A stretch of DNA of 64,000 bases from contig NW_003314275.1 in NCBI RefSeq assembly GCF_000143415.4, positions 1 through 64,000 on the forward strand. Direction: 5' to 3'. How positions within the stretch are numbered: position 1 is the first letter of the stretch; each line of letters opens with the position of its first letter. The translations under genes were made by a program, and so were the position numbers. The stretch is from Selaginella moellendorffii (Eukaryota > Plantae > Lycopodiophyta). This document shows, one piece after another, positions 32,810-38,600 of this stretch. The notes below the pieces were generated by a model, which saw only the letters and a program-made list of their open reading frames with translations, did no database searches and was not told the DNA's origin.

Positions 32810-34048
32810 ACATAAAGTTTTGCCTTGCAAAAATTCCTCCACTAGATCTCGCGCATTCGCTAGGTTCTCCTCCGGTTCCCATGTTGCTTCGCAGCGTGGA
32901 AATCTTTTCCACTTCACATGGAACTCTCTCACCTCGCGTCCTTGTCGCTTGCTCCTGCGCGCATTGAGGATGGCCTCGACTTCCTATTCCTCTTCCCCTT
33001 GGATAACCTCAGGTAAACGTCTTACTTGGTCCTTGCAAAGCGGATCCTCAAAATACGGCTTGAATAAGTTCACGTGGAACACGGGATGCATCTTCCCCAT
33101 CTCTCAAGGAAGTCGGAGTCAGTAAGCCACTTTACCGATTCGAGCCTCAATCTCGTAAGGCCCCGCGAACCTGCTTAAGGAACTCAAGATCAATTCATTT
33201 ACAGGAATACATGCATTTTTACCTTTGGGTCAACTTTCGGCTGATCCCACTTGGTAGCCTGAGGTTCTTGGTGTTCAGCCACACCTTCTCCCCAGCTTGG
33301 AACTCTACATCCCAGCGCTTCTGGTTCGCGTACTTAGTTTGCCTTTGTTGAGCTCGTTCCAAGGAATCCCTCATTAGATTCCAAATGTTGAGTCTTTCCG
33401 CCATGAATGCCTCCACTGCGGGTAACTCTCCATGATACTCGGCCACGCCGAGTTCCACAGGACCTTCAATAGCTCGCCCATTGATGACTTCCCATGGACT
33501 CACCCCGATGCTCAAATGTGGTGAGTTCTTATAACACATTTTCGCAAGTCCCAAATGACTTACCCAATTGGTCTGGTCTCCTGAGACATAGCATCGCAAA
33601 TAATCCTCCAGCTGCCTATTCACCCTTTCCGTTTGTCCGTCTGTCAAGAAGTGTTAGTGCCATCAACTTGACTTAATACCCCATACCTGTCTGTGGGTGA
33701 TAGGCTGTGCTGAATTTCAACTTGGTGCGATACTGTTCCAGGAGGGTTCTCCAGAACCTACTGGTGAAGATTTTATCTCGATCTGAGATAATCTCTTCCG
33801 GCCTTCCCCGTACTCGAACCACTTGTTCGAAGAACAGCTTCGCCACACCTTCCGCATCCACTTCCGTTGTGGTGGGTATGAAATGTGCCATTTTCGAAAA
33901 TCAGTCCACCACTACGAATATCGCATCAAACCCCTCGTTTGGGGGAAGTCCCGTGATGAAGTCCATCGTAAGACATTTCCACGGACAATCTGGAATTGGG
34001 ATGCTTTGCAGAAGCCCCCACTAGCCTTAGTCACGGCTTTGACCTGTT
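32810..34048 (-). pseudogene. Integrase core/C-terminus + chromodomain of the outer element, with introns 33641-33686 and 33171-33222
   Basis: [70 protein letters not shown]. Confidence 0.85.
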
Positions 34049-35629
34049 TGTAAGCCACAAATTTTTCCTTTCCAATTTGCTAGCTTACCTCGTCTATCCG
34101 TCCGACCGTGCCTTGGCTTTTGCTAACTTCCCTCGCCAAGGTTCTCGCCTATGGTACCAGCTCTTACTTGGTCCTACTTGCTTTCAGCTACTCACTGCAT
34201 GAGCAACGGAGTGTTAGCCATCCATCCACAGATTCCCAATCTCTCCCAATCCCCCTCCCCGGGTTAAACTGGACTTAAGGTTCGGCTACACTCCCCGCAC
34301 GCACAAGCAGCCAAGCACACCAAGCTTCCAGGTTCCTAACATCCCTTGGTACCACAAGACTTGATCATGGGACCCTCTAAATCCCAAGTCTTGAGTGCAA
34401 CACTTGCTTCGGGACGCTGGGGCGAAACACCGTGGCCTAGCGGCCCGGTATGGGTACCTCTACCCCCCCACTTCCATCCCGAAGGAAGGCCCAAGCCCCT
34501 AGGAAGGGTGAGGACCAATGAGCCGCATGGTACTCAAGTGGGGCACCAATCCATATAAGCCGGGAGCACCGCAATCGGTTTCCCTTTCGAGAGTGGGAGC
34601 TGTTCTTGAGCACTTCCTTGGATGGCCCCTCCGGCACCAACCAAGTCCATGCTCACTCCCACCCAAGGCCCCTCGGTCCCAGTCCCAACCTCAAGTCAGT
34701 TTGGGAGCCCCACTGGAGAGTCCCTTCGAAACTGGTTCCTGGACCTCACTATCCCTACTATACTTTTGGAACCCCCTGCAGCCCCCCTCCCCCCCCCCTG
34801 GGAGACGCACGCTTTGGGCTTTCACCCCTTGACCCGTATTAGTATTTGGACTTAGTCTCTGGCTCGATCTCGGACCCGATTTCGGATCCGACTTCGGATT
34901 CAGTCTCGGACTCGATCTCGTACCCGATCTGGGACCCGATCTCGGACCCGACCTCGGACCCGACCTCAGACTCGACCTCGGACTCGGTCTCAGACCCGAT
35001 TTCGGATCTCAGACTCCATCTCGAACTCGGTCTCGAACTCGGACTCGAACTCGGTCCCTGAATCGGTCTCGGACTCGATTCCGGACTCTATCTCGAACTC
35101 GGTCCTAGAGTCGGTCTTGGACTCGATCCTCGACTTGGTCCCATCCGATGAACTCTTTGTCATTTTGGTCATGCTTTCGGGGTTCCTTTAGCCTACGACA
35201 CCTTGGCGAGTTGGTTCCTTACAACTCCACCACCCATAGAAGAAGTTCGATGCCCACATCGAACGTCTCGTTTTATCCTACGACTTGTTGACCATGTCTC
35301 CGGGGGCATCCCCCCACTTAGTGGTGTGCCTAAGTTAGCCTCCCCGGCCAAGAGCCCATGACAACAGAATATAGGTGTCCCTATACTCCTCACCTCACCA
35401 TGCCCTAATATGGGGTCGGGACTTGAACCCAGCCTTGCTTTACTAGGGGGTTGGGACTCGAACCCAACCTCCGTAAAATACGTCTACGGATTCAACATCC
35501 CTACAAGGAGTCGGGCGTAGCTCCCTACGCCTGGTCGACCTAGCTAACCCATGCTAATTAGCTTACCTTCGGCGCGCCTTCGGGTCCCAACATATGCCAT
35601 TGCTCAACTTCTCAAATTGATACTTTTAA

Positions 35630-38600
35630 TTGAACTTTGCATAAGTACATAGAGTTCTGCCTTGCAGAAATTCCTCCATTAGATCTCGCGCATTCGCTAG
35701 GTTCTCCTCCGGTTCCCATGTTGCTTCGCAGTGTGGAAATCCTTTCCACTTCACATGGAACTCTCTCACCTCGCGTCCTTGTCGCTTGCTCCTGCGCGCA
35801 TTGAGGATGACCTCGACTTCCTATTCCTCTTCCCCTTGGATAACCTCAGGTAAAGGCCTTCCTTGGTCCTTGCGAAGCGGATCCTCAAAGTACGGCTTGA
35901 GTAAGTTCACGTGGAACACAGGATGCATCTTCCCCATCTCTCGAGGAAGTCGGAGTCGGTAAGCCACTTTACCGATTCGAGCCTCAATCTCGTAAGGCCC
36001 CGCGAACCTGCTTAAGGAACTCAAGATCAATTCATTTACAGGAATACATCCATTTTTACCTTTGGGTCAACTTCCGGCTGATCCCACTTGGTAGCCTGAG
36101 GTTCTTGGTGTTCAGCCACACCTTCTCCCCAGCTTGGAACTCTACGTCCCGACGCTTCTGGTTCGCGTACTTAGTTTGCCTTTGTTGAGCTCGTTCCAAG
36201 GAATCCCTCACTAGATTCCAAATGTTGAGTCTTTCCGCCGTGAATGCCTCCACTGCAGGTAACTCTCCATGATACTCGGCCACGCCGAGTTCCACAGGAC
36301 CTTCAATAGTTCACCCATTGATGACTTCCCATGGACTCACCCCAATGCTCGAATGTGGTGAGTTGTTATAACACATTTCCGCAAGTCCCAAATGACTTAC
36401 CCAATCGGTCTGATCTCCGGAGACATAGCATCGCAAATAATCCTCCAGCTGCCTATTCACCCTTTTCGTTTGTCTGTCTGTCAAGAAGTGTTAGTGCCAT
36501 CAACTTGACTTAATACCCCATACATGTCTGTGGGTGATAGGCTGTGCTGAATTTCAACTTGGTGCGATACTGTTCCAGGAGGGTTCTCCAGAACCTACTG
36601 GTGAAGATTTTATCTCGATCTGAGATAATCTCTTCTGGCCTTCCCTGCACTCGAACCACTTGTTCGAAGAACAGCTTCGCCACACCTTCCGCATCCACTT
36701 CCGTTGTGGTGGGTATGAAATGTGCCATCTTTGAAAATCGGTCCACCACCACGAATATCACATCAAACCCCTCGCTTGGGGGAAGTCCCGTGATGAAGTC
36801 CATTGTAAGACATTTCCATGGACGATCTGGAATTGGGATGCTTTGCAATAAGCCCCCACTAGCTTTAGTCACGGCTTTGACCTGCTGACATGTTGGACAT
36901 GTCTTTACATAGTTTTGGACGTCCTTAGTCATATCTGGCCAATGGTACTTCCTCTTGAGTAAGCCCATCGTCTTGGGCACTCCGCCGTGTCCCGCAAGAA
37001 GTCCGTCATGACACTCTTCTAAGGCTACCTTCCTTAGTTCCCCTTCTGGAACATACACCCTCGTTTGCTTGTAATAGATGAGTCTGTTGCGTTCCACATA
37101 ACCCGTTTTCTCTTCCGTTGGCAGCTCACCTCTCTGGTGAGCTTCCCGCGCCTCTAGATTCCTCAGCAACACTTCTTGTGCTAGACCATCGTTCTCATAT
37201 GCTGTCTGCACATCGTCCCAGAAGGTTGTTGTTGCACTGGATATCACCAACCTCAAGCTCGCTTTTCGACTTAGCGCATCTGCCACGATGTTGCTCTTCC
37301 CAGGCTTGTACAGAATCTCGCAATCAAACTCGGCCAAGGCATTGGCCCACCGACCTTGTTTCCCTCTCAGGTCGGGCTGTGACAAGAAGTGTTTCGTTGC
37401 CACATTGTCCGTGTAAACCTTGAAGTGTCTCCCAAGGTAGTGTCGCCACTCCTTGAGCGCCTTGACCACCGCAAGCAATTCCTTCTCGTGGGTAGGCCAC
37501 TACCGTTGAGCCTTGTCCAACTTCTTCGAGAAGAACGCTACTGGATGGTTGTCTTGCTTCAAAACTACGCCCAACACAAAGTCCGAAGCATCCGTTTCTA
37601 CCTCAAAGTCCTTACCAAAATTTGGTAATGCCAACACGGGAGCCTTCCTCAACTTCCCCTTGAAGTGGACGAATGCCGCCTCACATTCTGCTTTCCATAC
37701 CATCTTCCCTTTTCCCGTTTGGTCCGTTAAGGGTAGGGCCACTCTCGAATAGTGTCTGATAAACTTTCGATAGTAGTTGCATAGCCCCAAGAATGCCCTT
37801 AACTCATGTACATTCGATGGTCACTCCCATTCCTGGATCGCTTGGACCTTCTCCGGGTCCACCTTGAGCCCGTCTTGGCCCACCACATGCCCGAGAAACT
37901 TTACCTCTTGTTGAGCAAAGTCACATTTGCTCTCTTTAGCATACAGTTTGTGTTCCGTTAGTTTCTCAAACACCTTCGCCAAGTGTTCGGCATGCTCCTC
38001 TAGCGTCTCGCTATAGATCAGGTGTAAGCGACTAATTTTTCCATTCTACTTTAGTCACTTAACCACACCTCCGTCCACTTGGAAGAGTCTCATTCACAAC
38101 CTCCATAAGTCCAACTCAGGACTTGGGGCTTGCTAGCCCCGAGAATGGCATCCATGCCACTCAACCTTAGCACTTGGTCCAAGTGCTCCACGTGTCCGAT
38201 CCCATGATCGACACCCCAAGGTACCACCGACGTATCGGCCCGTTACGCTAAGGCCATGCCCAATTACCTTGGTCACACTGGTGGTCCAACACCACCTGCA
38301 TTCCAATCCCGTCTCTCAAAGACTGGGTCATTCGTCCATGAGGGATCATCCCAGATCCACTCCTTAACATCCTTAGGATGCCTATAGACATGGGGAATAG
38401 CCTTCCCCAATATCTCTGTTCCGGTCCCCACCAAGTCCCTTTCTGTCCTTGGCTGTGTTCGCCAACACTGCCACTGGATCAAGGCCCACTGGCTCGACCA
38501 CTAAGTCCCACTATCCTCGAGGACTTCCTCACTGTGTGACTGTGTCCTTGGTCACCCCACCAGAGGGCTACCCCTCTTCCTTTCCACAGTCTGGGACTTT

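Follow-up and report, generated by a model that had tools for sequence, protein, structure and literature searches.

The window analysed here, 64,000 nt of Selaginella moellendorffii contig NW_003314275.1 (positions 1 to 64,000), holds two nested copies of a Ty3/gypsy chromovirus, both dead (Table 1). The nesting stated in the earlier note is confirmed: the inner copy lies within the outer copy's integrase, flanked by a 5-bp target duplication. Its LTR pair gives a K2P distance of 0.041, several stops interrupt its coding sequence, and a solo LTR of a second family lies within its RT. One stop in the chromodomain region is common to both window copies and another, at the protease start, to two copies. 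Assignment to the Ty3/gypsy chromoviruses follows from LTRs with TG...CA ends, the 5-bp target duplication, the order gag-PR-RT-RH-IN and a chromodomain after the GPY/F module of the integrase (Pfam: Chromo, E 1.4e-14; SH3_Tf2-1, E 6.7e-16).

Table 1. Features of the window, with the candidate introns read from sequence only
Feature	Position	Strand	Remarks
Outer element, 3' part	31240–34048	−	remaining integrase, 3' UTR, 3' LTR (31240–32386)
Outer element, 5' remnant	43268–45019	−	RT, RH, start of IN
5-bp duplication around inner insertion	43268–43272 and 34044–34048		
Inner element	34049–43267	−	inserted in outer integrase, 5-bp target duplication
Inner element, 5' LTR	42177–43267	−	3' end and primer site deleted
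Inner element, gag ATG	42172	−	followed by PR, RT, RH, IN
Inner element, PPT	about 35224–35235	−	
Inner element, 3' LTR	34049–35223	−	
Solo LTR, second family	38023–39792	−	within inner RT; 1770 bp, 5-bp target duplication
Integrase intron 1, outer copy	33641–33686	−	46 nt, phase 1; coordinates, homologue alignment, RNA-type skip at matching site
Integrase intron 1, inner copy	36478–36523	−	46 nt, identical to outer; skipped in X1, X16, X4
Integrase intron 2, outer copy	33171–33222	−	52 nt, phase 2; coordinates, Pfam domains, homologue alignment
Integrase intron 2, inner copy	36008–36059	−	52 nt, 1 change from outer; "skips 52, CT..AC" in X1
Last exon, inner copy	35641–36006	−	SH3_Tf2-1 (GPY/F) and Chromo; Met-to-stop part 103 codons
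Extra GT donor, 3' UTR	32729–32730	−	no sign of use
Candidate intron over LTR end and tRNA-Met primer site, copy E	59921–59986	−	66 nt, or 52 nt ending at 59935 inside primer site
Same candidate, further copy	29712–29777	−	
Candidate intron, gag end	40918–40972	−	55 nt; identical at 58645–58699

Two short insertions interrupt the integrase in each copy, and their coordinates, lengths, minus-strand orientation, GT...AG ends, 3n+1 sizes and in-frame stops are all as the earlier note had reported, a stop occurring within one to four codons in all four cases. One frame runs from gag to the first insertion (intron 1), which splits the codon after HPQT; the claim that it lies just before the catalytic Glu is borne out, the distance being four codons. 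The second (intron 2) is placed immediately before FAGPY of the GPY/F module. Judged against general consensus motifs, U2-type features are present, namely GT-AG ends, a branch-point-like motif (CTAAC in intron 1) and a pyrimidine-rich 3' end, and GC content is low (0.41 and 0.33). At both junctions the insertion is flanked by direct repeats of only a few letters (5 and 4 nt). Near-identical copies at unrelated sites would mark an introner, an intron-making transposon; within the 64-kb window neither intron recurs, and the pair are dissimilar in sequence. Between the two copies they differ by 1 change in 98 nt, a low divergence attributable to their lack of CpG: 24 of the 44 exon changes fall at CpG, and at the non-CpG rate the intron count has P 0.46 (two copies only). 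The point changes said to affect the inner copy's exons were found at junction 1.

The insertions are not a chance pattern. A query with X at each junction was compared with homologues (235 proteins in total). At junction 1, all 167 spanning homologues aligned without a gap, with Asp opposite X in 165; at junction 2, 50 of 74 did so (Lys 26, Arg 23, Thr 1 opposite X), the other 24 having gaps of at most 15 residues in a variable stretch. Since homologous integrases are uninterrupted at these sites, the introns are gains. Several moss-like homologues (P0002, P0003) stop shortly behind the catalytic Glu, which suggested a shared intron; this was rejected, as other members of their clusters continue. 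The protein searches returned best identities of 49%, 46–51% and 47%, and no near-identical protein. A metagenome scan gave 103 stretches, with two distant loci at 30–37% identity, and a viral scan with P0003 gave nine stretches, none related.

Sequencing data support the proposal that the insertions are spliced introns. Three contig sets (X1, X3, X4) are of RNA type, their RNA nature being guessed, whereas X16 is recorded RNA-seq with raw reads; X17 yielded two poor reads and X18 none. One X1 contig skips both the 52 and the 46 nt at their GT-AG ends (depth 9.4, with at least 255 letters to either side), and this doubly spliced form is the only one observed in X1, so splicing can be efficient. 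The 46 nt are also skipped by an X4 contig (depth 10.1; one side just 29 letters) and by one of nine raw reads in X16, the sole evidence from recorded RNA. Removal of intron 1 was therefore seen in X1, X4 and X16, and that of intron 2 in X1 only (one contig; one of four RNA-type studies). X3 contains unspliced forms only, including an intron-1-keeping contig. In X4, spliced and unspliced forms are both present. Its unspliced contigs bridge intron 2 (depth 2) and retain intron 1, there with one flank of just 30 letters (depth 6.3); listed differences separate them from the contig that skips, so they do not establish a single locus for both. Identity between the spliced X1 contig and the window copies is ∼95%, and no genomic source of that contig was seen.

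No skip joint occurs among the 191 and 216 contigs of two DNA-like sets from one sample (X10 and X13, of unrecorded kind), whose main contigs (depth 43–68) contain both introns; contigs drop rare variants, and low-copy intron-free genomic copies could escape notice. Within that limit, both the DNA-like contigs and the published family layout keep the two introns. A variant of intron 1 longer by one base is the commoner form, which is tolerable for an intron and not for a coding stretch and therefore supports the intron reading. Both insertions are spliceosomal introns, excised in RNA and retained in DNA, as judged from runs whose kinds are partly guessed. For a third donor, AG/GTAAG at about 32730, no use was seen: the motif exists, but at its inner match (35566) an X3 contig (35513–35770) crosses unspliced, with no joint listed there. 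An early end of the spliced mRNA before the PPT likewise found no support, as the RNA-type contigs of three studies stop variously (35669, 35513 and 35783) and X16 reads reach further 3' than these ends.

Two traits agree with the Galadriel/Galahad clade: a tRNA-Met primer site follows both intact 5' LTRs (2/2), and gag-pol is a single frame, features given for this clade at 90% and 74%, respectively, in the REXdb table. The placement itself rests on PMC3350952. The Tcn1 clade, which self-primes without a tRNA primer site, was rejected given the tRNA-Met site; the longest pairing of the 22 nt after the LTR with the LTR is 7 nt. According to that paper, SM1-Galahad of S. moellendorffii is a Galadriel/Galahad chromovirus with hundreds of copies, published as three ORFs with "no intact copy". 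Its consensus has a 1295-aa long ORF that ends in the core integrase, then two unexplained short ORFs, of which ORF3 (309 bp) encodes a group I chromodomain. The window element shares its length of about 7.5 kb (7555 computed here), the 1146-bp LTR with a poly-G tract and the 13-nt tRNA-Met primer site. Moreover, the 1295-aa ORF equals the stretch from gag ATG to the intron 1 stop exactly, the second short ORF (316 bp in the paper) corresponds to 106 codons from Met to stop, and ORF3 equals the 103 codons of the inner last exon. Whereas the paper lists three ORFs, the breaks between them are spliced introns here. The element thus matches SM1-Galahad in its published dimensions and was already described; reading its breaks as introns appears to be new, the text of PMC3350952 having no match for "intron" or "splic". 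The sister family SM2-Galahad is described there as one open frame of 1577 aa, intact, young and abundant.

Beyond intron 1, most changes are synonymous, indicating that the split-off part has been under selection. Where the spliced X1 contig departs from a letter common to both window copies (37 of the 50 differences being listed), 9 of the 12 listed downstream changes are synonymous (0.34 expected, P 0.0045), compared with 12 of 34 between the two dead window copies. A comparison of X1 with X10 (9/11 synonymous among changes listed) was excluded from the evidence, since both lists of differences were truncated.

We think it probable that the family splices its two short integrase introns out of some of its RNA while its genomic copies retain them, full integrase being predicted only from spliced RNA and unspliced RNA likely being packaged and reverse-transcribed. 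Unspliced RNA would give Gag-PR-RT-RH plus an integrase cut before the catalytic Glu (1295 aa), and doubly spliced RNA the complete enzyme with its chromodomain. Of the splicing switch first proposed for this locus, the coding half stands, in that the catalytic Glu, the chromodomain and the SH3-like GPY/F module can be translated from spliced RNA alone; the packaging half is likely in the sense just given, and regulation of the splicing is a proposal. Some step would have to exclude spliced RNA from replication, because intron-free copies would otherwise have replaced the family.

The skipped forms could in principle have other origins. Were they transcripts of intron-free genomic copies, ancestral or processed, and the insertions never spliced, the ∼5% difference between spliced contigs and window copies and the listed differences among X4 contigs would fit. 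This account has little chance of being correct, as the skipped form is confined to RNA-type runs (0/407 DNA-like contigs) and two independent insertions alike begin and end as GT-AG introns, carry branch-point-like motifs and are poor in GC (0.41 and 0.33). Reverse-transcriptase slippage in library making could exploit the 5- and 4-nt direct repeats found at both junctions, but such repeats are very short, both stretches are missing from one contig, the ends fit GT-AG and X1 shows the skipped form alone; we consider it extremely improbable.

It is also conceivable, though unlikely, that the introns are real and spliced without any sorting of RNA, splicing being weak where the element moves and intron-free copies being occasional, rare or silenced. 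Unspliced forms are indeed common in RNA-type runs (exclusively so in X3, alongside spliced ones in X4), and contigs are unable to reveal rare intron-free copies. X1, however, yields the doubly spliced form alone, which shows that efficient splicing is possible, and a self-sufficient intron-free copy should spread, yet the breaks persist in the published consensus, which stands for hundreds of copies, none of them found intact. Very unlikely, in our view, is a passenger family whose integrase was crippled by the insertions and which intron-free SM2-Galahad mobilises in trans, with incidental splicing. The intact, young and abundant state of SM2-Galahad (PMC3350952) would suit it, and the stops common to copies in the chromodomain region and at the protease start hint that defective sub-lineages spread in trans; on the other hand, change downstream of intron 1 is mostly synonymous between lineages, splicing is exact and frame-keeping at both sites, and the consensus as published in PMC3350952 has no stop before intron 1.

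For the step that would exclude spliced RNA from replication under the preferred reading, our leading, tentative guess is a third short intron spanning the primer-binding site and the end of the LTR; once it was spliced out, the mRNA would be unable to prime. A donor motif is present at 4/4 intact LTR ends; it also pairs with the LTR end and may instead reflect a stem. Alternatively, the RNA pools may be kept apart, as they are in BARE. The candidate intron at the gag end would leave the frame open if kept and is predicted to give Gag alone if removed. The scan for these two extra candidates was post hoc (P 0.09). We doubt, on present evidence, that the host spliceosome runs a four-intron element in which the LTR-end intron deletes the primer-binding site from mRNA, the gag-end intron gives Gag alone and the two integrase introns keep the enzyme locked as long as the RNA has not been committed to translation. 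If it did, only wholly unspliced RNA would prime reverse transcription, and intron gain in pol would therefore be permanent.

Published work allows comparison with other intron-bearing retroelements. Ogre (Ty3/gypsy, Tat lineage) likewise has a stop-bearing intron in the polyprotein region, kept in the genome and spliced in a subset of transcripts to give the whole polyprotein, but there a single spacer, about 274 bp long, separates GAG-PROT from RT (PMC6317226), whereas the chromovirus studied here has two introns of 46–52 nt that cut conserved integrase motifs downstream of RT-RH, and its sister family lacks them. The element works like Ogre and is not of Ogre type, its introns lying in a chromovirus integrase. 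Spliced and unspliced RNA also coexist in EVD and BARE1 (Ty1/copia; PMC5580714, PMC3735527), and BARE replicates only the unspliced pool, spliced DNA copies not being amplifiable (PMC3735527). In those elements, however, splicing turns Pol off by making a Gag-only mRNA and unspliced RNA encodes all enzymes, while here splicing is required to turn integrase on. Foamy viruses too make an enzyme, Pol, from spliced RNA and keep an unspliced genome, but there a subgenomic mRNA that lacks one large stretch yields Pol as a protein of its own (PMC7828637), in contrast to tiny introns inside a catalytic domain that belongs to a single Gag-Pol frame. Penelope-like elements keep introns through retrotransposition, yet use another replication route, without LTR, integrase or tRNA priming (PMC8557442). 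The presence of introns in Ngaro/DIRS elements found no support in PMC3783388, which does not mention them, or in PMC8547959, where "intron" occurs twice. We regard the system as a novel variation on the logic of Ogre and foamy viruses.

That introns are lost on retrotransposition serves in textbooks as the proof of an RNA intermediate. In a 2025 review, Ogre and EVD are the sole plant LTR elements listed as having functional introns. Here, a family of hundreds of copies gained and kept two host-style introns inside integrase motifs, with an intron-free sister in the same genome. Together, SM1- and SM2-Galahad lend themselves to the question of how LTR elements separate genome RNA from mRNA, and the pair bears equally on how new introns arise and fix. 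The intron reading also explains the broken ORFs of the published SM1-Galahad. In hosts with very short introns, open-frame annotation will label such families "dead" or "chromodomain-less".

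All four insertions that the earlier note had reported on the minus strand of the two nested chromovirus copies were found exactly where it placed them, one of 46 nt (intron 1) and one of 52 nt (intron 2) in each copy, all bounded by GT...AG. Their 3n+1 length and in-frame stops also held, the incoming frame meeting a stop at most four codons into each stretch. Once intron 1 is removed from the outer copy, the integrase triad has 35 residues, by count, between its second Asp and its Glu, the canonical DD35E spacing. In an alignment of 235 homologous proteins, with an X placed at each joint, junction 1 was gapless in 167 of 167 spanning homologues (Asp opposite X in 165), and junction 2 in 50 of 74 (Lys or Arg in 49), the others having nearby gaps of ≤15 residues. 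The nearest homologues are 45–52% identical and include P0148, with one uninterrupted 1542-aa frame. As the set consists mostly of gene calls from metagenome contigs, we infer that the DNA of these homologues has no intron at either site.

Eight of the 23 listed sequencing runs were compared with positions 35230–38020. X16 is RNA-seq on record (∼12% of reads sampled), whereas X1, X3 and X4 are RNA by guess; X10 and X13 come from one sample of unrecorded kind and were taken as DNA because of their even cover. X17 gave two poor reads and X18 none over the compared region. Both the 52 and the 46 nt were skipped at the exact sites by one of three X1 contigs (depth 9.4). The 46 nt were also skipped by one of nine matching X16 reads and by one of 11 X4 contigs (depth 10.1; shorter side 29 letters, with the flag 'between: not known'). 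Single X4 contigs retained intron 1 (depth 6.3) and intron 2 (depth 2), and X3 (seven contigs) retained intron 1 and showed no skips. Skip joints were sought among the contigs of X10 (191) and X13 (216) and none was found; intron 1 was bridged in both, and intron 2 was whole in both, with short sides of 27 and 15 letters, under the 31-letter threshold. In X10, X13 and X3 the commoner form of intron 1 has one extra base and two changed positions on the donor side. Junctions in RNA-type data bear out the splicing, intron 1 being removed in three of four RNA-type studies and intron 2 in one of four, and we are highly confident that the insertions are spliced introns.

The window is a nest of repeats starting with a TTTAGGG telomere. 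The inner element sits in the integrase of the outer copy, which belongs to the same family, with a 5-bp duplication at the insertion; its RT is broken by a 1770-bp solo LTR from a different family. Pfam domains comprise gag, zinc knuckle, protease, RT, RNase H, integrase zinc finger and integrase core, followed past intron 2 by SH3_Tf2-1 and Chromo. The tRNA-Met primer site is retained in two additional copies.

Coordinates of the introns and other features of the window
Feature	Position	Details
Intron 1, outer copy	33641-33686	46 nt, minus strand
Intron 1, inner copy	36478-36523	46 nt, minus strand
Intron 2, outer copy	33171-33222	52 nt, minus strand
Intron 2, inner copy	36008-36059	52 nt, minus strand
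Inner element	34049-43267	LTR pair K2P 0.041
Shared protease-start stop	40886-40888; 58613-58615	two copies, 94% alike
AT-rich patch	35610-35655	GC 0.28, at pol stop
U3 arrays	32091-32263; 34850-35130; 39020-39500	11-12-nt units
Telomere and tandem units	1-16100	telomeric-repeat caps
Hammerhead ribozymes (Rfam)	1423; 8185; 12217; 13180; 15698	type I
L1-type LINEs	16057-24808	open 1510-aa ORF2 (endonuclease, RT, zf-RVT)
AT-rich element	26537-28372	inverted arms 568 nt, 87% complementary
Second LTR family	45431-53021	1.75-kb LTRs, tRNA-Met primer site

Each tandem unit behind the telomere carries a hammerhead ribozyme, and these units resemble telomere-attached Penelope-like or retrozyme elements. 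Immediately past the array lies the LINE, together with a second, partial copy. The AT-rich element is probably a non-autonomous DNA transposon. The second LTR family, whose 4.1-kb interior has no long frame, is possibly a non-autonomous partner; its LTR end and TATA-like box are similar to those of the first, and both families have long U3 arrays of units related to GAGTCCGAGATG. The AT-rich patch stands out from the rest of its element (∼50% GC) and may be a polyadenylation signal; contig ends were checked and none supports polyadenylation there.

Both nested copies are dead, as indicated by their stops and by a synonymous share between them of 12/34 downstream of intron 1, which equals the neutral share. 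Besides the stop at the protease start, a second, ahead of the chromodomain core, is shared by both nested copies; the accessible text of PMC3350952 gives a consensus with a single open frame at these positions. The shared stops would reflect either recurrent mutation or defective sub-lineages spreading in trans. The spliced X1 contig was also compared at sites identical in both window copies but different in it (37 of 50 differences listed). Random transitions would give a synonymous share of 0.34, whereas 9 of the 10 listed changes upstream of intron 1 (P = 0.0004) and 9 of the 12 listed downstream (P = 0.0045) are synonymous. This excess shows protein-level selection between lineages on the parts that the introns sever. 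Intron interiors differ at only 1 of 98 nt between the window copies, which is no evidence, since they contain no CpG.

Going by the reading frames, unspliced RNA would yield Gag, protease, RT-RH and an integrase without the catalytic Glu, GPY/F module and chromodomain, and full integrase would come from doubly spliced RNA only. Genomic copies retain these introns, so most likely it is unspliced RNA that is reverse-transcribed, the form shown to be the replication template of BARE in the available part of PMC3735527. We lean towards two pools, with unspliced RNA copied and full integrase made from spliced RNA. A rule-based scan of family pieces returned four candidate introns, all sense and none antisense: the integrase pair, another spanning the end of the LTR plus the primer site, and a fourth, 55 nt long, where gag ends. 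The rule was written after the candidates had been seen, and the chance P for two such matches is ∼0.09. Removing the primer-site candidate would abolish or truncate that site, but a lock of this kind seems rather unlikely; the candidate's LTR donor motif also pairs as a stem with the LTR end. Removal of the gag candidate would leave Gag alone, as splicing does in Copia elements (PMC5580714, in part); this stretch aligns weakly with a coding linker of P0148.

In its accessible text, PMC3350952 describes the S. moellendorffii family SM1-Galahad as hundreds of copies, ∼95% alike, of 7.5 kb, with LTRs of 1076/1146 bp bearing poly-G tracts, a 13-bp tRNA-Met primer site and a long ORF of 3885 bp (1295 aa) terminating in core integrase. 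Later ORFs of 316 bp and then 309 bp follow, the last with a chromodomain (the '113 aa' given for it conflicts with its own 309 bp), and its describers found no intact copies. The window element likewise has a 1146-bp LTR with poly-G tracts, 7555 bp overall, 1295 aa between the gag start codon and the intron 1 stop (solo LTR subtracted), a middle ORF of 106 codons and a last ORF of 103 codons (309 bp). It matches SM1-Galahad by dimensions rather than sequence, and the family consensus accordingly retains both breaks. The same text, in which 'intron' and 'splic' are absent, gives the sister family SM2-Galahad a single 1577-aa frame. Both introns were either gained since the SM2-Galahad split or lost in SM2-Galahad; we favour gain, as the outgroups have no introns.

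Among known systems, as far as the accessible texts go, Ogre is closest in logic (PMC6317226), foamy virus likewise makes Pol from spliced RNA (PMC7828637), and Penelope-like elements also retain introns, by a different route (PMC8557442). Where plant LTR elements have functional introns, the available part of a 2025 review (PMC12786077) lists Ogre and EVD alone; Bagy2 env and CRR are further cases in that of the BARE paper (PMC3735527). Full-text searches of freely accessible papers, assessed by listed matches plus excerpts of some papers, turned up no introns within an LTR-retrotransposon integrase, and the name SM1-Galahad in one paper only. The feature is real, and the element belongs to a known family; where it has spliced integrase introns, those who described it saw three ORFs.
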